A DNA stretch of 64,000 nucleotides from Escherichia phage OES_C-1, in the sequence record PQ553088. One strand, written 5' to 3'. Of this stretch, positions 3,041-60,667 are shown in pieces. Numbering within the stretch: position 1 is the stretch's first letter; each line of letters begins with the position of its first letter. The position numbers and the translations under genes were made by a program. The notes under the pieces are model-generated. The model made no database searches, was not told the DNA's origin, and worked only from the letters and a program-made list of their open reading frames with translations.

Positions 3041-3319
3041 TTATTCTTTAAATCTAATCAATTTATTCATAGACTTTGAAACTTCTGCACGGACCTCATG
3101 TAGGTTTTTAAGCTGTTCAAGACGCTGCTCATAGTAAGCAATTTCATCTTCTTCGAGACAGTCCTGTGAATCTTCTTTAAGATAGCGTGCATAGTCCTGG
3201 AAAGCGTTACGGACTACTTCCTGGAAGTCATCAAGACTTTGAATTTTCTTAGGAGCAACAGATACACGACGAGGGGCAGTATAATACTCATAACCAAACC
3301 CTGCGCTTAATTGAGCCAT
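3041..3319 (-). CDS. hypothetical protein (vs.3 position)
   Basis: Track ORF 3041..3361 trimmed to ATG at 3319 (TAATG coupling with upstream stop); start uncertain. Confidence 0.4.
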
Positions 3320-5589: not shown

Positions 5590-5647
5590 AATTTCCTCCA
5601 AGTAGTTGATGAATGTATAGTATCAAAGTCCTTGGAGGAAGTAAACA

Positions 5648-6450
<803 letters not shown>

Positions 6451-9915: not shown

Positions 9916-10479
9916 TTATTTACCTAGTTTACTTATTATAGCTTCTGCAGCAGCTTTTAGCTTAGATGCAGTGTTAATACGATTTTTAATTTCAGTATAC
10001 GCATCGCCAAGAACATCAAGGCTATCAGAATAAACACTTACACTATTGCGTTCGCTATTTGAAATAGAACCTTTAGTTTTGCGGTCAAAATCGGTGTACA
10101 CGTCTTGAAGATCGCGGGCTGCCTTCTTTGCATCATCCAATGCATCAAGAGCTTTATTCAAAGCATTAACGTATTTTTTAGTGTCGAACATATTCTTAGA
10201 AATTTTAACAGGTGCGCGTTCAGGAGTAGCTAACACAGATTTAGGAACCTGAGCGCCAGATGCCAATTTCTTAGAAATTTTGAAAAATGCTTTATTGAAT
10301 TTATTTTCTTGACTCATTGTAAAAGAACTATTATCGATGTTGTACATTTCAATAGCTTTAGCTTTCCACTTAAGAAAATCGCCGCGGTCTTTTGGGTCCA
10401 ATTGGAAGAATACTTTAGTAAGATCTGCTTCAGATGGTAATTTTGCTGCTTCGGTTAAAAATTCGGCATAGGTTTTCAT
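9916..10479 (-). CDS. internal protein (ipIII-like) with capsid-targeting leader
   Basis: 187 aa starting MKTYAEFLTEAAKL (IP-family leader). Confidence 0.65.
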   Translation of the reverse strand: MKTYAEFLTEAAKLPSEADLTKVFFQLDPKDRGDFLKWKAKAIEMYNIDNSSFTMSQENKFNKAFFKISKKLASGAQVPKSVLATPERAPVKISKNMFDTKKYVNALNKALDALDDAKKAARDLQDVYTDFDRKTKGSISNSERNSVSVYSDSLDVLGDAYTEIKNRINTASKLKAAAEAIISKLGK

Positions 10480-10570
10480 TTAAAATCCTTGAAATAATTT
10501 ATCGGTTGGTTATTAATTATTTATTACTTTGTTACTATCCGTAACAGCGTTATCCGAGTGATTCAAACTA

Positions 10571-10600
10571 AAAAGCCCCAACCTTTCGGTCGGGGCTAAG
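10571..10600 (-). terminator. rho-independent terminator (copy 1 of a 30-nt repeat)
   Basis: Minus sense AGCCCCGACCGAAAGGTTGGGGCT plus TTTTT; exact copy at 11128-11157. Confidence 0.65.
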
Positions 10601-10604
10601 AATG

Positions 10605-11078
10605 TCATTTGATTTGTTTAGCAGACCAAATGCGGTCTTTAATAATTTTTTGGATGTCTTCAACATACTCAAGAGAGTGAACATGTGGATTATCTTTGAA
10701 ACTATAAGCACGGGCTAACTTTTGGCCTTCGGTTTTGATTACTAAAAGCTCTTTAAGGATAGCTTCATATTTAGCGATAATTCCTTTAACGATATTTTTT
10801 TCTTGTGCCGCTTTAGGATCTGCTTTAGGAGCAGGTTTACCCGAAGCCTTTGCAAAAGCAGCGCCAGTAGCAACTAAACTTTTCCAGGCCATACTAACTG
10901 CATTTCCCGTAAATCCTTCCGCTTTCATGTCGCGTGCAAACTGGAATCGCGATTCATCAGAAGCATCTTTATAGGAATATTTACCCGCGGCAATGGCAGC
11001 TTTTGCAACAGCTTGAATTTCGGTGCTAGATGCTTCATTTAACACCGCTTCATTTAAAAATTGAGTATATGATTTCAT
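10605..11078 (-). CDS. internal-protein-family protein with capsid-targeting leader
   Basis: 157 aa from ATG at 11078 (MKSYTQFLNEA...), preceded by AGGAAAT; late promoter TATAAATA just upstream; track N-terminal extension rejected. Confidence 0.6.
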   Translation of the reverse strand: MKSYTQFLNEAVLNEASSTEIQAVAKAAIAAGKYSYKDASDESRFQFARDMKAEGFTGNAVSMAWKSLVATGAAFAKASGKPAPKADPKAAQEKNIVKGIIAKYEAILKELLVIKTEGQKLARAYSFKDNPHVHSLEYVEDIQKIIKDRIWSAKQIK

Positions 11079-11116
11079 CTTATTTCCTGTTTTAATTTGT
11101 AGATTTAATATACTAA

Positions 11117-11124
11117 TATTTATA
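11117..11124 (-). promoter_or_regulatory. late promoter (TATAAATA) for the IP-family gene
   Basis: Plus-strand tatttata about 40 nt upstream of ATG 11078. Confidence 0.5.
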
Positions 11125-11127
11125 CCA

Positions 11128-11157
11128 AAAAGCCCCAACCTTTCGGTCGGGGCTAAG
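11128..11157 (-). terminator. rho-independent terminator (copy 2 of the 30-nt repeat)
   Basis: Identical to 10571-10600. Confidence 0.65.
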
Positions 11158-11911: not shown

Positions 11912-12577
11912 TTAAAATTTCATTTTTCGACCTTTAAACCATCCTTCTGGAATTGGGTCAGTTTTCTTAATACGTTTAGAAACTTTTTCATCTAATGAAT
12001 GAATCCACATCATACCAAATTGGGAATTCTTTTCTCCTTTCTGATGATTATTTTTAGCGTGAATTTCTTTCATTTTATTAATAGTTTCAGGAGTATGATG
12101 CTTATTTAAAAATCTGCTATTATTTAAAAATTTTTCCTTGTATTCAGGAGTTGACCACAAACGTTTAAATACATTTGAACCAATTTTACGATATTTTTCT
12201 TGAAGTAAAATATCATTTTCAAAACGTGATTTAAACGATTTAGCTCCTTTTAAACTAGCATCTTTCTTCTGGTTTAGCATCCCAGGAATATTTATATGGT
12301 CCCATCCACCTTCACCACCAAGTTTTAAATTATACACATCTGGTCTATTTAAAAACTCTTCTGTGACAATATTTTTCTCAGCTTCAAGCATAGATTCTTT
12401 ATCATCAAAATACTCTAATATTTCTTTAGAAAAATTTTCTATACCATACTTGTCTTGGGCTCTTTTTAATAATTTACCAGAACCCATATATCCATCATCT
12501 AAATTTTCGGTAGAATGCACACCAATATAAATTTTATTATTAATTTTATTTGTTATTTTATAAAGATAAAAATGCAT
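11912..12577 (-). CDS. segB: GIY-YIG homing endonuclease (SegB-like)
   Basis: 221 aa from ATG at 12577; YLYKITNKINNKIYIGVHST...GYMGSG GIY-YIG motifs; sits inside the tRNA cluster as SegB does in T4; track extension to 12619 would overlap a tRNA. Confidence 0.75.
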   Translation of the reverse strand: MHFYLYKITNKINNKIYIGVHSTENLDDGYMGSGKLLKRAQDKYGIENFSKEILEYFDDKESMLEAEKNIVTEEFLNRPDVYNLKLGGEGGWDHINIPGMLNQKKDASLKGAKSFKSRFENDILLQEKYRKIGSNVFKRLWSTPEYKEKFLNNSRFLNKHHTPETINKMKEIHAKNNHQKGEKNSQFGMMWIHSLDEKVSKRIKKTDPIPEGWFKGRKMKF

Positions 12578-12623
12578 ATCAGTCCCTAATAAAGAACTGA
12601 GCGTCTCACGACGAGTCATAAAT

Positions 12624-12697
<74 letters not shown>

Positions 12698-12703
12698 AAA
12701 TTT

Positions 12704-12789
12704 GGTGCGAGAAGTGGGACTCGAACCCACAAGGAAATCATTCCGCAGCATTTTAAGTGCTGTGCCTTTACCAATTTGACCATTCTCGC
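12704..12789 (-). tRNA. tRNA-Leu (anticodon UAA), class II with long variable arm
   Basis: Acceptor GCGAGAA/TTCTCGC, anticodon loop CTTAAAA, variable arm GGAATGATTTCC, T-arm GTGGG-TTCGAGT-CCCAC, encoded CCA. Confidence 0.85.
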
Positions 12790-12790
12790 G

Positions 12791-12863
12791 CTGGGAATAA
12801 AGGACTCGAACCTTTGCATCCTGGAATCAAAATCCAGTGCCTTACCAACTTGGCTAATTCCCA
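12791..12863 (-). tRNA. tRNA-Gln (anticodon UUG)
   Basis: Acceptor TGGGAAT/ATTCCCA, anticodon loop TTTTGAT, T-arm AAAGG-TTCGAGT-CCTTT; CCA not encoded. Confidence 0.8.
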
Positions 12864-12960
12864 ATTATTAACAAAGGCTCTCAAGCAAGAACCCTTGATG
12901 ATAGAGGGTATTAATCAGTGCGATATGAGTTAATAATAACAAATAATTCTTAAAGCATAT

Positions 12961-13248
12961 TTACCATTTATGATAATACATATTTACGATGCATTCAAGA
13001 CCCAAAGGATTCTTGAAAATATCATATTCAAGAGGACCTTTTTCCGTTTCAATAAAGAAATCAAAATTTACTGTATTAAATTTACGGTCTTCCTTCACTA
13101 ATTTAACTTGAGAAGATGAACGATCAATGTAAACCTTTTCAACTTCAAAACATGTTAAAATGCCATAATCATCAATCAAGGCTTTAGCTGCTTCTTGATC
13201 ATATTTATATCCATTTTCAATGGATGATACTTTCGCATAAAGAATCAT
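12961..13248 (-). CDS. hypothetical protein, 95 aa
   Basis: ATG at 13246-13248. Confidence 0.5.
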   Translation of the reverse strand: MILYAKVSSIENGYKYDQEAAKALIDDYGILTCFEVEKVYIDRSSSQVKLVKEDRKFNTVNFDFFIETEKGPLEYDIFKNPLGLECIVNMYYHKW

Positions 13249-13250
13249 TA

Positions 13251-13652
13251 TTAACCTTTATCAACAATAGTATGTGTATGGGCATTTACGATTTGCCACC
13301 AGTCAAAACTATCGCCAAATCGTTTTGATTTATTGTCTTCAATAATTTGGCGTAATTCATCTTCTGTTTCAGCATACGCAATCAAATCATCATATCCACC
13401 GCAAGGATAGTAATTATCGCCTGCGAACAAAAGAAAATTTACTTTAGATGGGTCTACATAATAATGCTCTTTAGGATATTTAGTTCCTTTCCAATCAGTT
13501 ACTTCAACATAACGATAAGAAAATCCATTTTTACTTTCAACCCAACTCCACGCTTCAAAAGGAGTATTAAAAACTCTATCAGGTATTAAATTACCTTCAA
13601 AATGAGAAGGATTTGCATAATCCCCAGCATATACATAATATTCAACGTTCAT
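13251..13652 (-). CDS. hypothetical protein, 133 aa
   Basis: ATG at 13650-13652. Confidence 0.55.
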   Translation of the reverse strand: MNVEYYVYAGDYANPSHFEGNLIPDRVFNTPFEAWSWVESKNGFSYRYVEVTDWKGTKYPKEHYYVDPSKVNFLLFAGDNYYPCGGYDDLIAYAETEDELRQIIEDNKSKRFGDSFDWWQIVNAHTHTIVDKG

Positions 13653-13837
13653 TATTCACCTTTAGAAATTTTATCCATAACAATAGCAATTAAACCAATT
13701 AAAAATGCTACTACAAGTGAAAACACATTTTCTGCTGTAGTCAATAATCCACATATAAATCCAACAAACATTGAAAAACTAAAAGCGGAAGCAGAAATTG
13801 CAATAGCAACATTTCGAATTAATTCACAACGTTTCAT
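13652..13837 (-). CDS. small hydrophobic membrane protein, 61 aa
   Basis: ATG at 13835-13837 preceded by GAGGAGAA; two hydrophobic segments. Confidence 0.5.
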   Translation of the reverse strand: MKRCELIRNVAIAISASAFSFSMFVGFICGLLTTAENVFSLVVAFLIGLIAIVMDKISKGE

Positions 13838-13856
13838 TTTATTCTCCTCAGTAGTA

Positions 13857-13896
13857 GATAGGGTAATAGTATCACTACCCTATCTAAAAGTAAACT
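13857..13896 (-). promoter_or_regulatory. putative early promoter with stem-loop (shares a 19-nt repeat with 14155-14173)
   Basis: Minus sense GTTTAC-N18-TACTAT; palindrome GATAGGGTA...TACCCTATC. Confidence 0.4.
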
Positions 13897-14129
13897 TATT
13901 TTTTACGAAAAATTGATTTATTTTCTGCTGCCCATTTTTCAATAACTGCAGCAGGACCAGTAACAACAATTTTATCACCGTAATCTTCTGCGGCGAGTTG
14001 ACCGAAATTATCTAATGCATCACGAAGAACTCCATGAGGCATTTCACCCATTTTATCTTTCTTGCCAGTGTAAATAAACTCAACTTTTACATCAGCAGTT
14101 TCAGCAATAAATTCTTGGTAAGTTTTCAT
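13896..14129 (-). CDS. ipI: internal protein I-like
   Basis: 77 aa from ATG at 14129 (MKTYQEFIAE..., IP-family leader); flanked on both sides by the repeat gatagggtaatagtatcac. Confidence 0.65.
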   Translation of the reverse strand: MKTYQEFIAETADVKVEFIYTGKKDKMGEMPHGVLRDALDNFGQLAAEDYGDKIVVTGPAAVIEKWAAENKSIFRKK

Positions 14130-14154
14130 TTTGATTTCCATTTGGTTTTGTTTT

Positions 14155-14193
14155 GATAGGGTAATAGTATCACAACTAAAACCCTATGTAAAC
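14155..14193 (-). promoter_or_regulatory. putative early promoter for the ipI-like gene, containing the 19-nt repeat
   Basis: Minus sense GTTTAC-N18-TACTAT; repeat gatagggtaatagtatcac at 14155-14173. Confidence 0.4.
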
Positions 14194-14205
14194 AACTTTG
14201 TGAAA

Positions 14206-14890
<685 letters not shown>

Positions 14891-14891
<1 letters not shown>

Positions 14892-15616
14892 TATAGTACC
14901 TTTAGTGTATTTTTAATTTTAGAAAAAAGTTCTTCAAGAGAACCATCGTTTGTAATTACTAAATCGCCATCACGAATTGGCAATCCAGCTTCTGTAATAT
15001 GTGTATCATTGGATTTTTGACCAGGACGAACTACATGAATTACTGTAGCACCCATCGCCCTAGCCGCATCCATTTCATGATCTTGACGGGTATCAGGAAC
15101 GATATAATAATCATAACCTGAGTTAAATTTATCAAGATAATCTAAAGCAAATAATTTTACCCAGTACATGCGGTCGAAGTTATTAACAATCAAATCCGTA
15201 CCTAGGGCTTGCATCAGACGACGGACTGACCATTGATCTTCAATATTATTTATAACGTCAGTAATTTTGTTAAATGCTACGAAAGTAACTGATTCCTTTC
15301 CCTCGTCATCAAAAACAAACACACCTTTAATTGGGCTTTTACCATTAAGATAGCAAAATGCTTGTTCCATAATCATAATTACTTCTAATTTAGTCAAATT
15401 CAAATTAGTCTCACGATCATAGTCAATTCCTTCAAACTCTCTACGAGTTAAGCAAGGATAGTCAGTGTTTGCTGCAAATACACCCCATGCATAAGCCAAT
15501 GCATCTTTAATAGGACCAGCAAGTTGATATTTAACTGCAGAATAATTATTCATGATAAAATCTGCAGTAGTATCTTTTCCACTACGCTTTACACCACTTA
15601 AAAAGATTAGTTTCAT
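14891..15616 (-). CDS. 1: deoxynucleoside monophosphate kinase
   Basis: 241 aa; MKLIFLSGVKRSGKDT P-loop; same length as T4 gp1. Confidence 0.9.
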
Positions 15617-49961: not shown

Positions 49962-50240
49962 TCAAAATGTAATTTCTAACCAATCACCATCACGCTGATC
50001 ACTATTGACTTTAAAGCTGAATCCTTCTTTTCTCAGCCAATCACCAATTTCTTCAGTAATCAATTTATCACGAGCAATACAATAATAACTAAAATGTGTT
50101 TTACCTTGTTCAGCTGCTTTATTAGCAAGTTCCGAAAAATCTTTAATAAAACACTCTAGCTTAAACTGTTTACTTTTAAGTGCTTTTTCGCGCAATTGAT
50201 TAGCAAAAGATTCATTTTCATAAAGATCATACTGTTCCAT
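49962..50240 (-). CDS. hypothetical protein (24.2 position)
   Basis: 92 aa ORF, ATG at 50238-50240. Confidence 0.5.
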   Translation of the reverse strand: MEQYDLYENESFANQLREKALKSKQFKLECFIKDFSELANKAAEQGKTHFSYYCIARDKLITEEIGDWLRKEGFSFKVNSDQRDGDWLEITF

Positions 50241-50442
50241 TTTTCACCTTTTTATTGATATGTCTTTTTCTATAGACGACTTTTTCTCGAGTTTCAAATT
50301 TATTTTTAGCAGTCATAGCTCGAGCCCATAATACAGCCACTTCTTTTGCCTGTAAGTTTAATTCACGAGCAATTTCAATGAATGACTTTCCAGACTCATG
50401 AAGAGTAAACACCACAACCTCAGTTCTCATAATCAATCTCAT
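50227..50442 (-). CDS. small helix-turn-helix-like protein (24.3 position)
   Basis: 71 aa; SGKSFIEIARELNLQAKEVAVLW resembles an HTH; alternative start at 50430. Confidence 0.45.
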   Translation of the reverse strand: MRLIMRTEVVVFTLHESGKSFIEIARELNLQAKEVAVLWARAMTAKNKFETREKVVYRKRHINKKVKNGTV

Positions 50443-50510
50443 GTTATCGAGTTGATGCCATTATATACATCATTTTCTGAGTATGTTTTGTGTGCTTTCA
50501 AAATGAAGAA

Positions 50511-50529
50511 AGGGGCCGAAGCCCCTTAT
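50511..50529 (-). repeat. hairpin aggggccgaagccccttat (second copy of the 19-nt repeat at 8707-8725)
   Basis: Exact 19-nt identity; lies just downstream of the hoc stop. Confidence 0.6.
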
Positions 50530-50537
50530 GATTATGA

Positions 50538-51956
50538 TTATGGATAGGTATAGATGATACCAGTTTCTAAAGCAGTTTTATGAATGATGTATCCATTACG
50601 CGATTCTTGAACATCAACTTCTGGATAGTCTTTCATCATCTTCTGAAGAGTGTAACGATGTAGGTAATATTTACTATCTGGGTCGTCAGTTTTCCAATCT
50701 TTACCTTCTTCGGTCATTTTTTGGATTTCATCCATAACCCACCAACCGCACCAGATATAAGCTGAAGTACGATGTGGAAGAGGATGAACATAAGGTAGTT
50801 CACCTTCTGGTTCCGGAGCAACTTTATCAGTCACTTGAACTTGACCTGTGGCTTTAACTGTTTTACTATCATAGTCAGTTGCTGTAACGACAGCAGTAAC
50901 TTCAATAGTTTGACTTCCAATAGATGAGGTATCAACAGTATATACGTTAGTTGACCCTTCTACAGGAGAAGAATCTTTCTTCCATGAGTAAGTAATTTGT
51001 GCTGCTTCAGGTGCGCCAGTAACATTAGCAGTAAATGTAGCCGAAGCATCTTGCTGAACATTAATAGAAGGAGGAGTCAATGTAACCTGTGGATTCATTG
51101 TCTTCTTATTAACTGTCAATGATACTTCATTAGAAGTAACTGTTTTTGCGTCGTAATCCGTTGCTGTTACTTGGGCTATACATTTAATTTTTTTAACTCC
51201 AGCCACAGTTGGAGTATAGTTAAATGTAGAGTTAGTTTCTCCACCAACTTGTGAATCATCTACATACCACTGATACGTAGCAGACGCTCCATCAGGTTGA
51301 GAAGCTAATGCAGCAGTAAATTGAACCGGGGTTCCAATTACTCCAGCAGCAGGACTAGCAGGAGTTACTGCCAAGGTAGTTGTCTGCGTCTTTTTATTAA
51401 CAGTCAGTGACACTTCATTAGAAGTAACTTCCTTTGTATCATAATCTGCCGCGGTTACTTGAGCTACACACTTAATTGTTTTAACTCCGCTTGTAGTAGG
51501 AGTATAATTGAATGTAGCAGAAGTTGCTTCGCTCACAGGAGAACCGTCAACGTACCATTGATACGTAGCAGATGCGCCCGATGGCTGTGAAGCTAAGGCA
51601 GCAGTAAATTCAACAGCTGTTCCGATTACTCCTTCTGGAGGACTATTAGGAGTTACAGCTAAGGTAGTTGTCTGTGTCTTATTTTGAACTGTGATAGTTG
51701 TACTAATTTCAGCTGTTTCAGCATCAGTATCTGGAACTGGGTTTGTTGCAACTACTTTAATAGTTTTTTGACCGGCAGGTCCTTTTAGTACATAACTAAA
51801 AGTTGCAGATGTTTCTTCCTGTGGAACATCATCTACAGTCCAAGCATATGTAATAGGTCCATCTCCAGTTTCACCACTGGGTGTAGCAGTAAACTGCTGA
51901 GTCTGATCTATAACTCCAGTAGGTGTTTTAGGAGTTATATCAACTGTAAAAGCCAT
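50538..51956 (-). CDS. hoc: highly immunogenic outer capsid protein Hoc with an extra Ig-like domain
   Basis: 472 aa; tandem Ig-like units; two near-identical 96-aa repeats; T4 Hoc is recalled as 376 aa. Confidence 0.8.
   Translation of the reverse strand: MAFTVDITPKTPTGVIDQTQQFTATPSGETGDGPITYAWTVDDVPQEETSATFSYVLKGPAGQKTIKVVATNPVPDTDAETAEISTTITVQNKTQTTTLAVTPNSPPEGVIGTAVEFTAALASQPSGASATYQWYVDGSPVSEATSATFNYTPTTSGVKTIKCVAQVTAADYDTKEVTSNEVSLTVNKKTQTTTLAVTPASPAAGVIGTPVQFTAALASQPDGASATYQWYVDDSQVGGETNSTFNYTPTVAGVKKIKCIAQVTATDYDAKTVTSNEVSLTVNKKTMNPQVTLTPPSINVQQDASATFTANVTGAPEAAQITYSWKKDSSPVEGSTNVYTVDTSSIGSQTIEVTAVVTATDYDSKTVKATGQVQVTDKVAPEPEGELPYVHPLPHRTSAYIWCGWWVMDEIQKMTEEGKDWKTDDPDSKYYLHRYTLQKMMKDYPEVDVQESRNGYIIHKTALETGIIYTYP
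51090..51665 (-). repeat. in-frame tandem duplication, two units of 288 bp, inside hoc
   Basis: cttcattagaagtaac recurs at 51125 and 51413 (period 288 = 96 codons) with long flanking identity. Confidence 0.75.
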
Positions 51957-51965
51957 AAGTTATCC

Positions 51966-52646
51966 TTATTTTAATGTTACGAAAGAAGAATTACGTGTTT
52001 CACGAATTAGAACTGATCCGTCACGATTAATGTAGTAAATTAAGCTAAATAAAGTTTGATGTGCCGACGCGTGTTCAAAACTAGTTGGGTGAGATTTCCA
52101 ATCCGGAGTTTCAGCGATCCATTGATAAATCCACCAAGGAACCGTACAGAATCCTGGATTTTTTCCAATCAGCTGAAGATTCGGACTAAAGTTTTCCGGA
52201 AGAGTAAATACAGACGGCTTTTCAGATTCAATAATCTCAGCTACAGCCTGTTCGAATTTTTCTTCAACAAAAGGAGTATCTTCAATCAAAACATCGGTAT
52301 TTTCAGGAATTTTATCCGTTTCTACTACTTCAATTTTAATGTCAGATTTAACCGGAGAATCAATCAGAAGCGCTGCTTCTGGATTGACTTCTTCATCGTC
52401 ATATTTTAATCCCTCTGCGGCATCAGCAGCATTGATTAAGTCTTTAATAGATAACCCATCAGTCTCTGGCATAGGTTCACTAGCGAGCTTCTGGAGGGCT
52501 TCTTCAATATCATTAACGATATTATCAAAAGATTTATTCTTTTTGACCTTTATACCAAACTGTTCAGCATATTCAGCTAATTTAGCTTTAGCTTCTTTAT
52601 TATCATCAAGAGCCTTCAGCTCTGCAATATAATCTTTATCTATCAT
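51966..52646 (-). CDS. inh: inhibitor of prohead protease
   Basis: 226 aa; position after hoc; same length as T4 Inh. Confidence 0.75.
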   Translation of the reverse strand: MIDKDYIAELKALDDNKEAKAKLAEYAEQFGIKVKKNKSFDNIVNDIEEALQKLASEPMPETDGLSIKDLINAADAAEGLKYDDEEVNPEAALLIDSPVKSDIKIEVVETDKIPENTDVLIEDTPFVEEKFEQAVAEIIESEKPSVFTLPENFSPNLQLIGKNPGFCTVPWWIYQWIAETPDWKSHPTSFEHASAHQTLFSLIYYINRDGSVLIRETRNSSFVTLK

Positions 52647-52659
52647 AATATTTCCTCAG

Positions 52660-52667
52660 TATAAATA
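52660..52667 (+). promoter_or_regulatory. late promoter (TATAAATA) upstream of uvsW
   Basis: tataaata about 30 nt upstream of ATG 52697. Confidence 0.5.
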
Positions 52668-52696
52668 TAGATATATTTATTACATGGTATTTAGAC

Positions 52697-54208
52697 ATGA
52701 CTGACATTAAAGTACATTTTTATGATTTTAGTCACGTGAGAATTGATTGTGAAGAAAGTACATTTCATGAACTCCGTGATTTCTTTAGCTTCGAAGCTGA
52801 CGGGTATCGGTTTAATCCTCGCTTCAGATATGGCAACTGGGATGGACGAATCCGTCTTTTAGATTATAATCGCCTTCTTCCATTCGGCTTAGTTGGGCAA
52901 ATTAAAAAGTTCTGCGATAACTTTGGCTATAAAGCTTGGATTGACCCGCAAATTAACGAAAAAGAAGAATTATCAAGAAAAGATTTTGATGAATGGCTTT
53001 CTAAATTAGAAATCTATTCAGGAAATAAAAGAATTGAACCGCATTGGTATCAAAAAGATGCAGTGTTCGAAGGGTTAGTTAATCGTCGTAGAATTCTTAA
53101 TCTTCCAACATCCGCAGGTAAATCTTTAATTCAAGCTTTGCTTGCACGTTATTATTTGGAAAATTATGAAGGTAAAATTCTTATCATTGTTCCAACAACT
53201 GCTCTGACAACTCAGATGGCTGATGACTTTGTTGACTATCGTTTATTCAGTCATGCAATGATAAAGAAAATCGGTGGTGGAGCATCAAAAGATGATAAAT
53301 ATAAAAATGATGCACCGGTAATTGTTGGTACATGGCAAACTGTAGTAAAACAACCAAAAGAATGGTTCTCGCAGTTTGGAATGATGATGAATGATGAATG
53401 CCATCTTGCCACAGGAAAAAGTATTTCATCTATCATATCAGGTTTAAATAACTGCATGTTCAAATTCGGTTTGTCTGGTTCATTACGTGATGGCAAAGCC
53501 AATATCATGCAGTATGTTGGAATGTTTGGTGAAATATTTAAGCCAGTAACGACTTCTAAATTAATGGAAGATGGACAAGTAACTGAGTTAAAAATTAATA
53601 GTATTTTTCTTCGCTATCCCGATGAGTTCACTACTAAATTAAAGGGAAAAACTTACCAAGAAGAAATAAAAATTATTACTGGGCTCAGTAAAAGAAATAA
53701 ATGGATCGCTAAATTAGCTATTAAACTTGCGCAAAAAGATGAAAACGCTTTTGTCATGTTTAAGCATGTATCACACGGTAAAGCTATTTTCGATTTAATT
53801 AAAAATGAATACGATAAAGTTTATTACGTATCAGGGGAAGTTGATACTGAAACACGCAACGTAATGAAAACCTTAGCTGAAAATGGTAAAGGAATAATTA
53901 TAGTAGCTAGTTATGGTGTATTTTCTACTGGTATTTCAGTTAAAAATCTGCATCACGTTGTTTTAGCGCACGGTGTTAAATCAAAAATCATTGTATTACA
54001 AACAATCGGTCGTGTATTACGTAAGCATGGTTCTAAAACAATCGCAACGGTCTGGGACCTCATTGATGACGCGGGCGTAGTTTCTAAATCAAAAACATCT
54101 TCTAAAAAATACTCGCATTTGAACTATCTTTTAAAACACGGCATTGATCGTATTCAGCGCTACGCAGATGAAAAATTTAATTACGTAATGAAAACAGTTA
54201 ATTTATAA
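52697..54208 (+). CDS. uvsW: UvsW RNA-DNA and DNA-DNA helicase
   Basis: 503 aa; SF2 helicase motifs (PTSAGKS Walker A, DECH box). Confidence 0.9.
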   Translation: MTDIKVHFYDFSHVRIDCEESTFHELRDFFSFEADGYRFNPRFRYGNWDGRIRLLDYNRLLPFGLVGQIKKFCDNFGYKAWIDPQINEKEELSRKDFDEWLSKLEIYSGNKRIEPHWYQKDAVFEGLVNRRRILNLPTSAGKSLIQALLARYYLENYEGKILIIVPTTALTTQMADDFVDYRLFSHAMIKKIGGGASKDDKYKNDAPVIVGTWQTVVKQPKEWFSQFGMMMNDECHLATGKSISSIISGLNNCMFKFGLSGSLRDGKANIMQYVGMFGEIFKPVTTSKLMEDGQVTELKINSIFLRYPDEFTTKLKGKTYQEEIKIITGLSKRNKWIAKLAIKLAQKDENAFVMFKHVSHGKAIFDLIKNEYDKVYYVSGEVDTETRNVMKTLAENGKGIIIVASYGVFSTGISVKNLHHVVLAHGVKSKIIVLQTIGRVLRKHGSKTIATVWDLIDDAGVVSKSKTSSKKYSHLNYLLKHGIDRIQRYADEKFNYVMKTVNL

Positions 54209-54223
54209 GGGCTTCGGCCCTTT
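54209..54223 (+). terminator. stem-loop after uvsW
   Basis: GGGCTTCGGCCC hairpin followed by TTT. Confidence 0.45.
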
Positions 54224-54233
54224 GGAGAAAAAG

Positions 54234-54464
54234 ATGTTACTAGAATTTAAACAATTTCTTTATGAAGCTTCTATTGATGAATTTATGGGTAAAATTGCCT
54301 CTTGCCAAACATTAGAAGGTCTAGAAGAACTTGAAGCTTATTATAAGAAAAGAGTTAAAGAAACTGAATTAAAAGATACTGATGACATCTCTGTGAGAGA
54401 TGCTTTGGCAGGAAAAAGAGCTGAATTAGAAGATTCAGACGATGAAGTAGAAGAAAACTTTTAA
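54234..54464 (+). CDS. uvsW.1: UvsW.1 small acidic protein
   Basis: 76 aa from ATG at 54234 preceded by GGAG; track start 54222 is TTG. Confidence 0.65.
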   Translation: MLLEFKQFLYEASIDEFMGKIASCQTLEGLEELEAYYKKRVKETELKDTDDISVRDALAGKRAELEDSDDEVEENF

Positions 54465-54520
54465 ATTAAAAAAGGCCCAACCAAAAAAGGAAGGGCCAAA
54501 ACTATAGACTAAAGGTCACA

Positions 54521-54688
54521 CTATAGCAAAAGTTGTGTTTCATTTAATTGTTCTTCAGAACTTTCTGAAACTGGTAGTTCTTTAATGTAATTATAGCAAG
54601 GCCCAGGATGTACAGGACCTTTGTCTGTTTCAACAACCAATGCAGAATCGATTGGAGTTTTACAGACAACACAAATCTTATCTGACAT
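54521..54688 (-). CDS. small Cys-containing protein, 55 aa (below ORF-track cutoff)
   Basis: Own translation MSDKICVVCKTPIDSALVVETDKGPVHPGPCYNY...; uvsY.-1-like position. Confidence 0.4.
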   Translation of the reverse strand: MSDKICVVCKTPIDSALVVETDKGPVHPGPCYNYIKELPVSESSEEQLNETQLLL

Positions 54689-54716
54689 GATTGTCTCCTC
54701 TAAATTATATATCTAT

Positions 54717-54941
54717 TTATATAACTCTCATATGCATATCAATGCCCATATCTTTAGAATAAAAATATTCATCAAGATATCCGGCAAATTTTCCTTTAAT
54801 ATAAAGTACATCTTCACCGCATGGGTGGTCGGCCAGGATACGAATATCCTGACGCTTGAGATTATACTTTTTCATTAAGAATTGAATTTCCGTTTCGAAT
54901 TCTTCTTCATAATTAAAAGCATCATCAATGCTATATTTCAT
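54717..54941 (-). CDS. hypothetical protein (uvsY.-2 position)
   Basis: 74 aa; TAATG overlap with the uvsY stop. Confidence 0.55.
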   Translation of the reverse strand: MKYSIDDAFNYEEEFETEIQFLMKKYNLKRQDIRILADHPCGEDVLYIKGKFAGYLDEYFYSKDMGIDMHMRVI

Positions 54942-55354
54942 TATTTTCCAGCCTCAAATGCTCGCATGTCTTGAATATGCTTAATAGCAAATCCACGTGA
55001 TTTAATAGCATCAAGAGCTCCGCTACAGAAATCCAATAAAATTCCCCAATATTGTAATGAAGTATCAACTTTTAAAACATCCTTATCAGCTGATAGAACT
55101 GTCTTCATTTCTGATTTCTCATAACGATCCATACTAAATTCATCGCCATCTCCTCGTCCCGAGTAGTAGTCTAATTTAGCTTTAAGAGCAACTTTTTTCT
55201 GTGCTTCAATTCTAAGCATTTCCTTTTTAATACTTGAATGCTTATTAAGCCATTTACTATATAACATCACATTATTAGCTGCTTCATACTGTAATTTAGT
55301 CGAATCTATAAACACATCTTTCTTCAATTCTTCTTGAAGATCTTCTAATCTCAT
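54941..55354 (-). CDS. uvsY: recombination mediator protein UvsY
   Basis: 137 aa; MRLEDLQEELKKDVFIDSTKLQYEAANNVMLYSKW... matches T4 UvsY as recalled. Confidence 0.9.
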   Translation of the reverse strand: MRLEDLQEELKKDVFIDSTKLQYEAANNVMLYSKWLNKHSSIKKEMLRIEAQKKVALKAKLDYYSGRGDGDEFSMDRYEKSEMKTVLSADKDVLKVDTSLQYWGILLDFCSGALDAIKSRGFAIKHIQDMRAFEAGK

Positions 55355-55420
55355 ATTGTTCTCTATTCAATTGTTATTGGATGGACTTAGATTCATTATA
55401 CCACGTTTATACGTGAAGCA

Positions 55421-55819
55421 TTATACTCTGTTACTGGAAGCTAGTTGTAGTTTTATCTGCTCAATATCATCAGGGTTATCGATGACCGAAAAGCGTATTT
55501 CTACTATCAGAGTATAATCATCATAAACTGGTATTACATTAACTGCTAATTTATCAATACGCGGCTCGTAGTTTCTTACTGCGCTTTCGATGTTACGTTC
55601 AACTGTATCAGCAGTAAGAGGAGTCATATTCTCAAAAAGTTGATCAGATAAATCGCATCCAAATTCTGGGTCAAACGGTCTCGACCCTTTCCTGGTTGTA
55701 ATAATTCCTAAAAGACTGTTTTTAATTGACCTTAATCCAAGAGATCTAGAAACATCTTTGTCCCAATCCATTTTCATTTCTGGGTCAATGTCAGAATAAA
55801 GCTTATTAATATTTGCCAT
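55421..55819 (-). CDS. 25: baseplate wedge protein gp25
   Basis: 132 aa; same length as T4 gp25. Confidence 0.9.
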   Translation of the reverse strand: MANINKLYSDIDPEMKMDWDKDVSRSLGLRSIKNSLLGIITTRKGSRPFDPEFGCDLSDQLFENMTPLTADTVERNIESAVRNYEPRIDKLAVNVIPVYDDYTLIVEIRFSVIDNPDDIEQIKLQLASSNRV

Positions 55820-56445
55820 TACAATAGCTCAAAGAATTCTTTGAGCCCTCTTATTACATGAGCATGAGTTTTTCCACACTCTGGACACTTAATTGGAACA
55901 GCCAAATAAACAGTAGGTTTTAAAAGCATATCTTTTATAGCTACAATATCTGACTCTGTGATGATAGAATATAAATCTTCCAATTCTTTTTCATTTAAGT
56001 CTTCAACTGGAATGCTTTCCCCGTTAGCATGAATCGTTTCTATGCATGATACTATCATGTGGGCTATATTTTTATCATCAAAAATTTTAGGGTAATGGAA
56101 CTTAATTTTAATGTCACCCAGTGTATACCAGAGGTCTTCTGGTGCATCTATTTGCGTATGTAATAGATTTATATGGGTTGGTATTTCAGTTCCACAGGTG
56201 CACTTCCAGGAGTTTTCGTGATTAACTTCCCCAAGAGAATGTGCCCATAAATGAATCAACAAGAGTTCTGATTCTTGGCGGTTTAAATCTTTTGCATTTG
56301 TACAATCTTTAATTAGCTTTTTAACGATCTCTTCTACTGAACCGTTCTTTTTAGCAGTAATAAGTTCTAGATATTCTTTAAGAGTAAATGCGCGACAGTT
56401 GATTATTTTAGAACCAACTCTCACATCAAATTTGTATTCATACAT
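55819..56445 (-). CDS. 26: baseplate hub protein gp26
   Basis: 208 aa; TAATG overlap with gene 25. Confidence 0.85.
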
Positions 56446-56466
56446 ATTTAGCTCCTTTATTTATCA

Positions 56467-56478
56467 TATTTATAAATA
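56467..56478. promoter_or_regulatory. overlapping divergent late promoters (TATAAATA) for gene 51 (plus) and gene 26 (minus)
   Basis: tatttataaata at 56467-56478 reads as TATAAATA on both strands. Confidence 0.55.
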
Positions 56479-56495
56479 GAATAAAAGGAGCATCT

Positions 56496-57245
56496 ATGGC
56501 AAACATTATTCGTTGTAAATTACCAGATGGTGTTCATCGTTTTAAACCATTTACGGTAGAAGATTATCGAGATTTTTTGTTAGTTCGAAACGATATAGAA
56601 CATCGGTCACCACAAGAACAAAAAGAAATAATTGCTGATTTAATTGCCGATTATTTTGGAGACTATCCGAAGACTTGGCAACCATTTATATTTTTGCAGG
56701 TATTTGTAGGGTCAATAGGTAAAACTAAAGTACCGGTCACATTTGTATGTCCAAAATGTAAAAAGGAAAAGACAGTTCCATTTGAAATATATCAAAAAGA
56801 ATTAAAGGAACCTGTTTTTGATGTAGCTAATGTTAAAATTAAATTAAAGTTTCCTTCTGAGTTTTATGAAAATAAAGCAAAGATGATTACTGAAAATATT
56901 CATTCTGTTCAAGTAGATGAAACATGGTATGATTGGAAGGAAATTAGTGAATCAAGTCAAATAGAACTTGTTGATGCCATCGAGATAGAAACATTAGAAA
57001 AAATTCTCGATGCAATGAATCCTATTAATTTAACGCTACACATGTCCTGCTGCGACAAGTACGTAAAAAAATACACTGATATAGTAGATGTGTTTAAGCT
57101 ATTAGTTAACCCAGATGAAATATTTACTTTTTATCAAATTAATCACACACTCGTAAAAAGTAATTATAGCTTAAATTCAATAATGAAAATGATTCCTGCC
57201 GAGCGCGGATTCGTATTAAAACTGATTGAGAAGGATAAACAATAA
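56496..57245 (+). CDS. 51: baseplate hub assembly catalyst gp51
   Basis: 249 aa; same length as T4 gp51. Confidence 0.85.
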
Positions 57246-58420
57246 TGAGTATGTTGCAACGCCCAGGATATCCAAATCTCAGCGTTAAATTATTTGATAG
57301 CTACGACGCTTGGAGTAATAATAGATTTGTTGAATTAGCTGCTACTATTACCACATTAACTATGCGGGATTCTCTTTATGGCCGAAATGAAGGAATGCTG
57401 CAGTTTTATGATTCTAAAAATATCCATACAAAAATGGATGGAAATGAAATAATTCAGATTTCTGTAGCTAATGCAAACGATATTAATAATGTTAAAACAA
57501 GAATTTATGGATGTAAGCATTTTTCCGTGTCAGTAGATTCAAAGGGTGATAACATCATTGCTATTGAATTGGGAACTATTCATTCTATAGAAAATCTTAA
57601 ATTTGGTAGACCGTTTTTCCCTGATGCAGGTGAATCTATAAAGGAAATGCTTGGCGTCATTTATCAAGATCGCACATTATTAACTCCAGCAATAAATGCT
57701 ATAAATGCTTATGTTCCTGATATTCCGTGGACTAGCACATTTGAAAACTATTTGTCATATGTCAGAGAAGTTGCTCTAGCTGTAGGAAGTGACAAATTTG
57801 TATTTGTATGGCAAGACATCATGGGAGTTAATATGATGGACTATGATATGATGATAAATCAAGAACCGTATCCAATGATTGTCGGTGAGCCATCTTTAAT
57901 AGGTCAATTCATCCAAGAATTAAAATATCCATTGGCATATGATTTCGTTTGGTTGACTAAATCGAATCCTCACAAACGTGACCCAATGAAAAACGCTACT
58001 ATCTATGCTCATTCATTTTTAGATTCTTCATTGCCAATGATTACTACAGGAAAGGGCGAAAACTCTATTGTCGTGTCAAGGTCAGGTGCTTATTCTGAAA
58101 TGACTTATAGGAATGGATATGAAGAAGCTATTCGTCTTCAAACTATGGCGCAATACGATGGCTATGCTAAATGTTCTACTGTCGGTAATTTTAACTTGAC
58201 ACCTGGCGTTAAAATTATTTTTAATGATAGTAAAAACCAATTTAAAACAGAATTTTACGTTGATGAAGTTATCCACGAATTATCCAATAATAATTCAGTA
58301 ACTCATCTATATATGTTCACTAATGCAACGAAACTGGAAACAATAGACCCAGTTAAGGTTAAAAATGAATTTAAATCTGATACTACCACTGAAGAAAGTA
58401 GTTCTTCCAATAAGCAATAA
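57245..58420 (+). CDS. 27: baseplate hub protein gp27
   Basis: 391 aa; same length as T4 gp27. Confidence 0.9.
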
Positions 58421-58898
58421 AGAAGTTTCTATTCCTAAAATGGGTCTTAAACATTATAACATTTTAAAAGATGTTAAAGGTCCTGATGAAAATTTAAAAC
58501 TTCTTATTGATTCTATTTGTCCGAATTTATCACCGGCAGAAGTTGATTTCGTTTCTATTCATTTATTGGAATTTAATGGAAAGATTAAATCTCGCAAAGA
58601 AATAGATGGTTATACTTATGACATTAATGATGTTTATGTATGCCAAAGATTGGAATTTCAATACCAAGGAAATACATTTTATTTTAGACCGCCTGGAAAA
58701 TTTGAACAATTTTTAACTGTGAGCGATATGTTATCCAAATGCTTGCTTAAGGTCAATGATGAAGTTAAAGAAATTAATTTTCTTGAGATGCCAGCATTCG
58801 TTTTAAAATGGGCAAATGATATTTTTACAACTTTAGCAATTCCTGGCCCTAATGGTCCAATAACCGGAATTGGCAATATTATTGGATTATTTGAATGA
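58365..58898 (+). CDS. 28: baseplate hub distal protein gp28
   Basis: 177 aa; overlaps the gene 27 3' end in another frame. Confidence 0.8.
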
Positions 58899-60667
58899 AA
58901 AAGCCACAAGAAATGCAAACGATGCGTAGAAAAGTTATTTCAGATAATAAACCAACACAGGAAGCGGCTAAATCCGCTTCTAATACTTTATCTGGACTTA
59001 ATGATATATCTACGAAATTGGATGATGCTCAAGCTGCTTCTGAATTAATTGCTCAAACTGTCGAAGAAAAATCGAATGAAATAATTGGAGCAATTGACAA
59101 CGTAGAAAACGCAGTGAGTGATACCACTGCTGGTTCTGAGTTAATTGCTGAAACTGTTGAAATTGGCAACAATATTAATAAAGAAATTGGTGAATCACTC
59201 GGGAGCAAATTAGATAAATTAACAAGTTTACTAGAGCAAAAAATTCAGACAGCCGGAATTCAACAAACAGGAACCAGTTTAGCCACAGTTGAAAGCGCTA
59301 TTCCTGTTAAAGTTGTTGAGGATGATACAGCTGAATCTGTGGGTCCTTTATTACCAGCTCCTGAAGCAGTTAATAATGATCCTGATGCTGATTTTTTCCC
59401 CACCCCTCAGCCAGTTGAACCCAAACAAGAATCACCAGAAGAAAAACAGAAAAAAGACGCATTTAACTTAAAATTATCTCAAGCTTTAGATAAATTAACG
59501 AAGACTGTTGATTTTGGATTTAAGAAATCCATTTCAATTACTGATAAAATATCAAGCATGTTATTTAAGTACACCGTCAGTGCTGCTATTGAAGCTGCTA
59601 AAATGACTGCAATGATATTGGCTGTTGTTGTTGGAATAGACCTGTTGATGGTTCATTTCAAATATTGGTCAGATAAATTTTCACAGGCTTGGGATTTGTT
59701 TAGTACAGACTTTACTAAATTCTCTAGCGAAACCGGAACATGGGGTCCTTTATTACAGAGCATCTTTAGTTCTATTGATGAAATTAAAAAATTCTGGGAA
59801 GCGGGAGATTGGGGCGGTTTGACTGTAGCTATTGTAGAAGGGCTTGGAAAAGTTCTTTATAATTTAGGAGAACTTATTCAGCTTGGAATGGCTAAATTAT
59901 CTGCTGCAATTCTTCGAGTCATTCCTGGCATGAAGGATACTGCTGATGAAGTAGAAGGAAGAGCACTAGAAAATTTCCAAAATTCTACTGGAGCATCTCT
60001 CAATAAAGAAGACCAGGAAAAAGTTGCAAATTATCAAGATAAACGAATGAATGGAGACCTCGGTCCAATAGCAGAAGGACTAGATAAAATTGCGAACTGG
60101 AAAACTCGTGCATCTAACTGGATTCGTGGCGTTGATAATAAAGAAGCACTAACTACCGACGAAGAACGTGCAGCAGAAGAAGAAAAATTAAAGCAACTTT
60201 CACCTGAAGAAAGAAAAAATGCTTTAATGAAGGCTAATGAAGCCCGTGCCGCAATGATTCGCTTTGAAAAATATGCTGATTCAGCTGATATGAGTAAAGA
60301 CTCAACAGTTAAATCAGTTGAAGCTGCCTATGAAGACCTTAAAAAACGGATGGATGACCCGGATTTAAATAATTCACCGGCAGTTAAAAAAGAACTTGCT
60401 GCTAGATTTTCTAAAATTGATGCTACTTATCAAGAGCTCAAGAAAAATCAGCCTAATGCCAAACCTGAAACTTCTGCTAAATCGCCAGAAGCAAAACAAG
60501 TCCAGGTAATAGAAAAGAACAAAGCACAGCAAGCTCCTGTTCAACAAGCATCTCCTTCAATCAATAATACTAATAATGTTATTAAGAAAAATACTGTCGT
60601 TCATAATATGACACCCGTAACGAGCACGACTGCTCCTGGTGTATTTGATGCGACTGGAGTTAATTAA
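58895..60667 (+). CDS. 29: baseplate hub / tail length tape-measure protein gp29
   Basis: 590 aa; same length as T4 gp29. Confidence 0.9.
   Translation: MKKPQEMQTMRRKVISDNKPTQEAAKSASNTLSGLNDISTKLDDAQAASELIAQTVEEKSNEIIGAIDNVENAVSDTTAGSELIAETVEIGNNINKEIGESLGSKLDKLTSLLEQKIQTAGIQQTGTSLATVESAIPVKVVEDDTAESVGPLLPAPEAVNNDPDADFFPTPQPVEPKQESPEEKQKKDAFNLKLSQALDKLTKTVDFGFKKSISITDKISSMLFKYTVSAAIEAAKMTAMILAVVVGIDLLMVHFKYWSDKFSQAWDLFSTDFTKFSSETGTWGPLLQSIFSSIDEIKKFWEAGDWGGLTVAIVEGLGKVLYNLGELIQLGMAKLSAAILRVIPGMKDTADEVEGRALENFQNSTGASLNKEDQEKVANYQDKRMNGDLGPIAEGLDKIANWKTRASNWIRGVDNKEALTTDEERAAEEEKLKQLSPEERKNALMKANEARAAMIRFEKYADSADMSKDSTVKSVEAAYEDLKKRMDDPDLNNSPAVKKELAARFSKIDATYQELKKNQPNAKPETSAKSPEAKQVQVIEKNKAQQAPVQQASPSINNTNNVIKKNTVVHNMTPVTSTTAPGVFDATGVN

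Follow-up and report, generated by a model that had tools for sequence, protein, structure and literature searches.

Why should the same 19 nucleotides stand on either side of one small gene in a T-even phage? The question is raised by the genome of Escherichia phage OES_C-1 (sequence record PQ553088), of which one stretch of 64,000 nt, hereafter the window, was analysed. The 19-mer GATAGGGTAATAGTATCAC occurs there twice as an exact match, with no other match in the 64 kb even when up to three mismatches are allowed; 100 dinucleotide shuffles of the window returned no match, and none is expected by chance. Beyond the exact core, the likeness of the two copies extends over 39 nt at 77% identity. 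Here, I propose that the two 19-mers are very probably the shared core of two copies of a conserved intercistronic module of the T-even ip1 locus, one that would act as promoter, as hairpin and as a patch of portable homology.

The ip6 gene and its locus

The window derives from a Tequatrovirus; over its segment 13200-14900, identity is 99.9% with Escherichia phage OES_C-2 and 92-95% with a large group that includes T6, PST and RB18. The gene order, all on the minus strand, is 1, 57A, 57B (Acb1), ip6, trna.4, trna.3, trna.2 and tRNAs, and is syntenic with T4, T2, T6 and PST (Table 1). Since 57B is the anti-CBASS nuclease Acb1, the ip cassette directly adjoins another counter-defence gene; at the other end, the downstream module is immediately followed by trna.4, and then by trna.3, trna.2 and the tRNA genes on the same strand.

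The initial annotation regarded the gene enclosed by the repeats as ipI-like. This stands as far as its position and its N-terminal leader are concerned, not for its identity, for the gene is ip6. The profile phrog_8111 ('internal virion protein') matches the open reading frame with an E value of 1.5e-52, in an alignment that begins at residue 5 of the 81-aa ORF and thereby supports the MKT start (77 aa); the homologous genes are annotated as IpVI in PST and as Ip6 in JK1. Relatives of Ip6 fall into 11 protein clusters, nine of which cover at least 96% of the query at 78% identity or more, the other two being fragments. A homologue of IpI, that is a member of the GmrSD inhibitor (IPI*) family, was considered and rejected: residues 1-14 alone align with T4 IpI, and no similarity of sequence or fold is found outside the leader. 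The predicted fold of Ip6 is generic ferredoxin-like.

As to the leader, the N-terminus MKTYQEFIAE is that of a capsid-targeting leader, and the conserved stretch of ~11 aa reads MKTYQEFIAET in Ip6 and MKTFKEF... in IpI, Ip5 and Ip7. The prohead protease of T4 cleaves after the motif hydrophobic-x-Glu; Ip6 has a match to this motif, by sequence only, with the cut falling between MKTYQEFIAE and the following T. Judged by leader and family, Ip6 is an internal protein, whose leader would direct it into the head and which would then be injected with the DNA. Ip1, Ip2 and Ip3 of T4 are injected, and each of them blocks a different GmrSD-type Type IV restriction enzyme (PMC12373910). Ip6 shares with them the N-terminal leader, the small size, a hypervariable locus and adjoining counter-defence genes, yet has no sequence similarity to them past the leader; by analogy, it probably blocks some host defence.

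Table 1. Features of the ip6 locus and of its two flanking modules (window coordinates; all on the minus strand)
Feature	Position	Strand	Length	Remarks
dNMP kinase (gene 1)	14891-15616	-		
57A	14661-14891	-		
57B, anti-CBASS nuclease Acb1	14206-14664	-		conserved left anchor; Pfam Acb1, E 2.7e-60
Upstream module	14130-14205	-	76 nt	spacer between 57B and ip6
UP-like stretch, upstream module	14205-14194	-		tttcacaaagtt
-35 box, upstream module	14193-14188	-		GTTTAC
Outer stem, upstream module	14195-14190 / 14153-14148	-		TTGTTT / AAACAA
Left hairpin arm, upstream module	14187-14181	-		ATAGGGT
19-nt repeat, copy 1	14155-14173	-	19 nt	minus-sense GTGATACTATTACCCTATC; spans extended -10, -10 box and right hairpin arm
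TG-extended -10 box, upstream module	14169-14164	-		TACTAT
Right hairpin arm, upstream module	14162-14156	-		ACCCTAT
ip6-specific leader, upstream module	14154-14130	-		
ip6, internal (injected) head protein gene	13896-14129	-	77 aa	ORF list; PHROG 8111 match
Downstream module	13838-13895	-	58 nt	spacer between ip6 and trna.4
-35 box, downstream module	13895-13890	-		GTTTAC; directly 3' of the ip6 stop codon
Left hairpin arm, downstream module	13884-13876	-		GATAGGGTA
19-nt repeat, copy 2	13857-13875	-	19 nt	minus-sense GTGATACTATTACCCTATC; exact match
-10 box, downstream module	13871-13866	-		TACTAT
Right hairpin arm, downstream module	13865-13857	-		TACCCTATC
Shine-Dalgarno sequence, downstream module	13849-13844	-		GAGGAG
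trna.4	13652-13837	-	61 aa	conserved right anchor; annotated as predicted membrane protein in T2

Promoter-like elements and hairpins in the two spacers

An exact repeat on both sides of the gene, each copy lying in the minus sense within a GTTTAC-N18-TACTAT element and forming part of a palindrome, had been noted from the letters alone. All of this is borne out: both copies fit the element, with the boxes located as in Table 1, and both belong to inverted repeats, though of differing geometry. Read in the minus sense, the module runs from the stop codon of the upstream gene through an A/T-rich UP-like stretch, the -35 box GTTTAC, the left hairpin arm, the TG-extended -10 box TACTAT, the right arm and a gene-specific leader with its Shine-Dalgarno sequence to the ATG. 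The TG stands two bases upstream of the -10 box in both copies; the A/T-rich stretch ahead of the -35 box is tttcacaaagtt in the upstream module and aaaaaataa in the downstream one, with GAGGAG or GGA ahead of the ATG. The PST/T4 consensus for promoters of PeSL elements, TTTACW-N17-TAYWAT, fits both copies; a consensus scan detected the upstream copy only, as TTTACA-17-TACTAT with TG. The left halves of the modules (14187-14176 and 13889-13877, minus strand) share two blocks whose order is reversed, ATAGGGT+TTTAG in the upstream and TTTTAG+ATAGGGT in the downstream copy, and on account of this swap the left arm lies 7 nt nearer to the -10 box in the latter.

Promoter activity of both modules in OES_C-1 is predicted. 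Early promoters are also predicted at the homologous sites in the annotation of fPS-2; the T4 GenBank record AF158101 has no promoter features annotated at the ip locus, and the literature searched yielded no transcription-start map for OES_C-1 or for T4. Among the RNA classes of T4, ipI and trna.4 are listed as 'early', the upstream 57B and 57A as 'middle' (supplement of PMC9697503), and such a change from middle to early at the homologous modules is compatible with promoters firing there. As a T4-type early promoter, the module would allow each cassette to be transcribed separately right after infection, and its downstream copy would also drive trna.4 to trna.2 and the tRNA genes. The early promoter of the T4 tRNA cluster, placed ~1 kb upstream of tRNA-Gln, would coincide in position with the module before trna.4.

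In the downstream module, the two 9-nt arms pair across a 10-nt loop that holds the -10 box; the stem amounts to 11 bp in DNA, or to 14 bp in RNA if G-U pairs are included, and the RNA fold has an energy of -18.5 kcal/mol (z -3.5 to -5.8). In the upstream module, a 7-bp stem closes an 18-nt loop, and with the outer stem of 6 bp added the RNA fold reaches -18.1 kcal/mol (z -4.3). DNA folds of both modules are weaker, yet non-random (z about -2.6 to -3.0). Folding at the locus is non-random: 42 of 60 unique ip-locus modules fold with z of -3 or lower (median -3.76). As a control, 28 early-promoter-like sites were drawn from the window and two more stretches of OES_C-2, with OES_C-2 50,001-60,018 (~10 kb) left out; seven of them have z of -3.3 or lower, two of the seven being the ip modules themselves, and the remaining 21 have z of -2.6 or higher.

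At least ten different stem sequences occupy one and the same position around the -10 box. Besides the pair GATAGGGTA/TACCCTATC of the window, they include GATGAGGTA/TACCTCATC, AGGGCTAT/ATAGCCCT, AGGGTTAT/ATAACCCT, GGTAGGACTA/TAGTCCTACC, AGGTCTATAG/CTATAGACCT, GTGTAGGGATA/TATCCCTACAC and ATGGGATA/TATCCCAT, as well as the long-loop variants GGGCT/AGCCC and GGGTT/AACCC. When the modules are compared in a fixed register, 61.8% of the cells can pair, versus 29-53% with a slid partner, and the covariation score exceeds that of all 500 shuffles; since two or more stem registers coexist among the modules, this signal is no more than moderate, and the folding z-scores of single modules are the more informative measure. 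On these comparative grounds, the symmetry of the hairpin is selected as structure.

An inverted repeat centred on a -10 box is also the classic layout of an operator, and the palindrome could be read as the target of a dimeric DNA-binding protein that shuts the promoters off. This is extremely improbable, for the arms differ within a single genome (9 bp with a 10-nt loop versus 7 bp with an 18-nt loop) and diverge widely between phages while their complementarity is kept, which points to structure and not to sequence recognition. The hairpin itself is not essential for viability, since several natural junctions carry broken stems, such as T2 ip5-ip7 (z -1.6) and L035_3305 (z -1.1).

A selected hairpin could serve in the RNA: in read-through transcripts it would fold just past each stop codon, where it could attenuate transcription, insulate the cassettes from one another or stabilise the 3' end. 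The hairpins were also considered as intrinsic terminators, a reading that was rejected, there being no U-tract and no terminator-like site called at either module. A permissive Rfam scan of 12500-15000 gave tRNAs only and thus no known RNA family over the modules. A different arrangement is seen in one module family (L012, L017 and L028, about 3166-3230, and L043, 3289), where a long-range stem joins ATCTCCATTTG, just past the -35 box, to CAAATGGAGAT, which includes the Shine-Dalgarno sequence; the ribosome-binding site would there be hidden in read-through RNA and exposed in RNA initiated at the promoter.

Probable exchange of cassettes at the shared core

Every spacer between 57B and trna.4 was extracted from ten phages differing in cassette content, namely ip6 alone (the window and JK1), ipV and ipVI (PST), ipI and ip6 (303Ecol101PP), ipI (T4 and fPS-2), ip5 and ip7 (T2), ipI and ip7 (EC.W14-2), ip5 (ime09) and no ip gene at all (bov10K1). 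In 10/10 phages all spacers are variants of one module. Its two halves behave independently: the left half (UP-like stretch, -35 box and left arm) tracks the upstream gene, the right arm, leader and Shine-Dalgarno sequence track the downstream gene, and the halves join in the invariant (a/t)gtgaTACTATta, i.e. in the shared -10 core. Thus, left halves of the class GTTTACttttagatagggtagtga follow ip6 and ip7, and those of the classes tttcacaaagttGTTTACa... follow 57B, ipI and ip5; among the leaders, aaaattaattaggaaaataaa precedes ipI, ip5 and ip7, aaaacaaa... precedes ip6, and (a/t)actactgaggagaataaa precedes trna.4 everywhere in the phages compared. The upstream module of the window is likewise found after 57B in JK1 and bov10K1, and the same module occurs in L042.

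The breakpoints of homology fall at the repeat. T4 ceases to match the window at 13875 and resumes at 14151, which are the edges of the repeat. The genome without an ip gene, bov10K1, aligns to 13653-13878 and to 14153-14400 of the window, and, since these alignments share 24 nt of bov10K1, its empty site holds exactly one copy of the repeat; an empty site between 57B and trna.4 with the same module is also present in Klebsiella phage JD18. Chimeric junctions, in which the two arms do not match each other, occur at T2 ip5-ip7, EC.W14-2 ipI-ip7, PST ipVI-trna.4 and in L035. The expectation that related phages would carry the repeats around other ORFs is thereby confirmed for T4, T2, ime09, PST and EC.W14-2 as well as for the empty site of bov10K1, with a module in every spacer; the proposal of a module for gene exchange at a hypervariable ip1 locus is supported, as the cassettes differ between phages and homology breaks at the repeat.

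On a broader scale, a 68-nt module query found 1280 places in 764 phage records, and 36 IMG/VR loci retrieved through the 57B protein contain zero to four leader-bearing ORFs each, of some twenty distinct sequence types as judged by inspection. The exact 19-mer is present in 12/49 phage loci compared. A third exact copy stands outside the window, in the gene 32-frd region of the OES_C-2 record at ~147.7 kb (L049 23722-23740), within a promoter module with a GGGTA/TACCC stem ahead of a 22-aa ORF; given this copy in the nearest relative, the core of the 19-mer is not exclusive to the ip locus. In L024, from a more distant lineage, another direct repeat, TTATCCCATCAACTACTG, encloses ip6 and has a stem of its own, ATGGGATA/TATCCCAT. 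In an ip-locus spacer of L026 (3677-3740), the -10 box and right arm are duplicated in tandem (gaTACTATtacctcatcaa twice), which looks like the footprint of a slipped or unequal exchange in the core.

Of the three roles proposed for the module, that of portable homology for recombination is the best supported by these comparisons. Each internal-protein gene has a near-identical patch on either side, and the homologous recombination or replication machinery of the phage could place a crossover in the -10 core. Between co-infecting phages such an exchange would swap cassettes; inside one genome it would either duplicate the cassette or delete ip6, in which case one hybrid module would remain and a circle of 298 bp could in principle be released. 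The junction of the predicted ip6-less product would read ...gttgtgaTACTATtaccctatctactactgaggag..., joined inside the 19-mer. Deletion within a genome may be rare, however, because an exact identity of 19 nt (within 39 nt at 77%) is short for efficient homologous exchange.

Could the two copies resemble each other simply because both must work as early promoters, the similarity being a by-product without any role in exchange? Other early-promoter-like sites in the window do share GTTTAC, the TG and TACTAT with them, even 'tttcacaaa' and 'atcaactact', and therefore part of the similarity is promoter consensus. The remainder makes this explanation unlikely, for (i) 9 nt of the 19-mer (TACCCTATC) lie outside the promoter consensus, and vary freely among the other stem variants in modules that look functional; (ii) it is in the core that homology breaks off, that the empty site retains its one copy and that the chimeras are joined; and (iii) most other early-promoter-like sites, i.e. 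those 21 of the 28 above the folding threshold, have no such hairpin.

A second question is whether exchange would rely on the hairpin as such. Compensatory changes in several T4-like genera preserve the dyad symmetry at a single position, and Arbiol et al. speculated on a recombination protein that binds stem-loops (PMC2839356); a dedicated system that recognises structure might accordingly recombine or cut the hairpins, either in the manner of integron attC sites on folded strands or through cutting of cruciforms by endonuclease VII. This is quite unlikely, as no recombinase gene adjoins the locus, the junctions coincide with the longest identical stretch, that of loop and -10 core, just as plain homology predicts, and several natural junctions have broken stems. 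The odds are equally poor for the -10-centred dyad as an active recombination signal, whose folded strand or cruciform would be cut or paired by phage enzymes; if true, the ip locus would be an integrase-less gene-cassette array, with promoter, insulator and recombination site in one 40-nt element.

A third potential source of polymorphism lies nearby. A GIY-YIG-type homing endonuclease-like ORF (11912-12619, minus strand; family assigned by eye from motifs) occupies the segB position beside the tRNA genes, ~1.3 kb downstream of the ip cassette, and co-conversion could add to the variability of the region; homing endonucleases have indeed been listed as a parallel source of exchange by Comeau et al. 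(PMC4122927). That the polymorphism should stem mainly from this ORF, the repeats being incidental, is nevertheless very unlikely. Co-conversion tracts would not end exactly at the 19-mer both to the left and to the right of the cassette, nor would they produce modular combinations of left and right halves, and T2 (L006) has the same modular junctions although it differs from the window in the neighbouring trna.2-trna.3 ORFs, from which the junction pattern appears independent of that flank. Homologous exchange in the shared core of the modules is thus retained as the preferred reading.

Relation to known elements and to other cassettes of the window

Elements of this kind are already known for this locus from Repoila et al. 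(1994), Arbiol 2010 and Comeau 2014. According to Arbiol 2010 (PMC2839356), PeSL-like sequences were seen by Repoila et al. (1994) at two highly variable T-even IP loci; the IP-locus elements, it says, build on T4 early promoters, have stem-loops that are weaker and A/T-richer, and are analogues, not homologues, of PeSLs. Comeau 2014 (PMC4122927) repeats the statement on the IP loci and gives the PST/T4 promoter consensus used above. PeSL mini-circles have been shown by inverse PCR in RB49 and phi1 (Arbiol 2010, PMC2839356).

The spacers on both sides of ip6, of 76 and 58 nt, correspond to homologous intercistronic sequences of ~60-75 bp. Repoila, Tetart, Bouet and Krisch, in the EMBO Journal of 1994, reportedly described conserved intercistronic early-promoter sequences of ~70 bp flanking internal-protein ORFs at two T-even IP loci. 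The ip6 flanks agree with that description in the locus (57B to trna.4), the family name ip6, a predicted early-promoter module on both sides, the conserved N-terminal leader and the shuffling by recombination that was proposed, and differ in nothing essential; what is new is the genome, that of an OES_C-2-like relative of T6 with ip6 only, as in JK1.

With the PeSL cassettes of RB49/phi1, PST/T4 and nt-1/KVP40, the modules share (i) a unit of promoter, stem-loop and Shine-Dalgarno sequence around variable small ORFs in hyperplastic regions, (ii) a predicted sigma-70-type early promoter that fits the PST/T4 consensus and has an A/T-rich upstream region, (iii) indel and replacement breakpoints inside the element that flanks the variable ORFs, and (iv) recombination between neighbouring units as the proposed mechanism. 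They differ from the PST PeSL, whose stem-loop lies just upstream of the promoter (PMC4122927), in that the arms of the ip6 stems straddle the -10 box, and from those of RB49/phi1, whose stem-loop is a G/C-rich terminator (PMC2839356), in that the ip6 stems are A/T-richer and have no U-tract. The initial annotation, which had likened the repeats to the promoter-plus-stem-loop modules of T4-type phages, is therefore right in that variable ORFs are flanked, and needs amendment in that the hairpin overlaps the -10 box and has no U-tract, unlike in canonical PeSLs. What defines a boundary element of the IP loci is present in the ip6 flanks, the early promoter as a prediction; from PeSLs they depart in one feature, the upstream terminator stem-loop.

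The attC cassettes of integrons offer a further parallel: small single-ORF cassettes with imperfect palindromes at their borders, variable in gene number, order and identity, with a circular intermediate proposed. It is an analogy only, for no integrase is present here, each cassette has its own promoter, and homology in the core is the simplest explanation of exchange.

No new principle emerges from the window; rather, the published model is sharpened by the modularity of the halves, the single-copy empty site, the chimeric junctions and the at least ten compensating stem variants. At the ip loci, T-even phages maintain an exchangeable repertoire of injected counter-defence proteins, and the flanking promoter-hairpin modules would explain how this repertoire is reshuffled without disturbing neighbouring genes. 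For the window itself, the gain is a correct annotation, that is an Ip6-only cassette between Acb1 and trna.4, with an early promoter predicted on each side and a deletion product that can be predicted.

Other genes of the window invite comparison with this cassette. The second IP locus (5617-5929, minus strand) encodes a 93-aa internal head protein (phrog_3499), whose start overlaps the stop codon of the lysozyme gene e; a promoter-like GTTTAC-N18-TACTAT element stands directly after this ORF, ahead of denV, with no hairpin (z 0.1). An ORF of 157 aa (10605-11078, minus strand; MKSYTQFLNEAVLNE..., phrog_2280) has a leader-like N-terminus and is flanked by a pair of identical terminator hairpins rich in G/C, TTAGCCCCGACCGAAAGGTTGGGGCTTTTT, which lie at 11156-11127 and 10599-10570 (region 10570-11156); it constitutes a second cassette bounded by direct repeats, of terminator type, and its stems look nearer to the canonical PeSL stem than do the ip6 flanks. 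The adjoining ORF of 187 aa (9916-10479, minus strand; MKTYAEFLTEAAKLPSE...) likewise belongs to PHROG 2280 and has a capsid-targeting-like start. The two ORFs look like candidates for additional paralogues of the internal proteins, situated close to the tRNA region and beyond the two classical IP loci.
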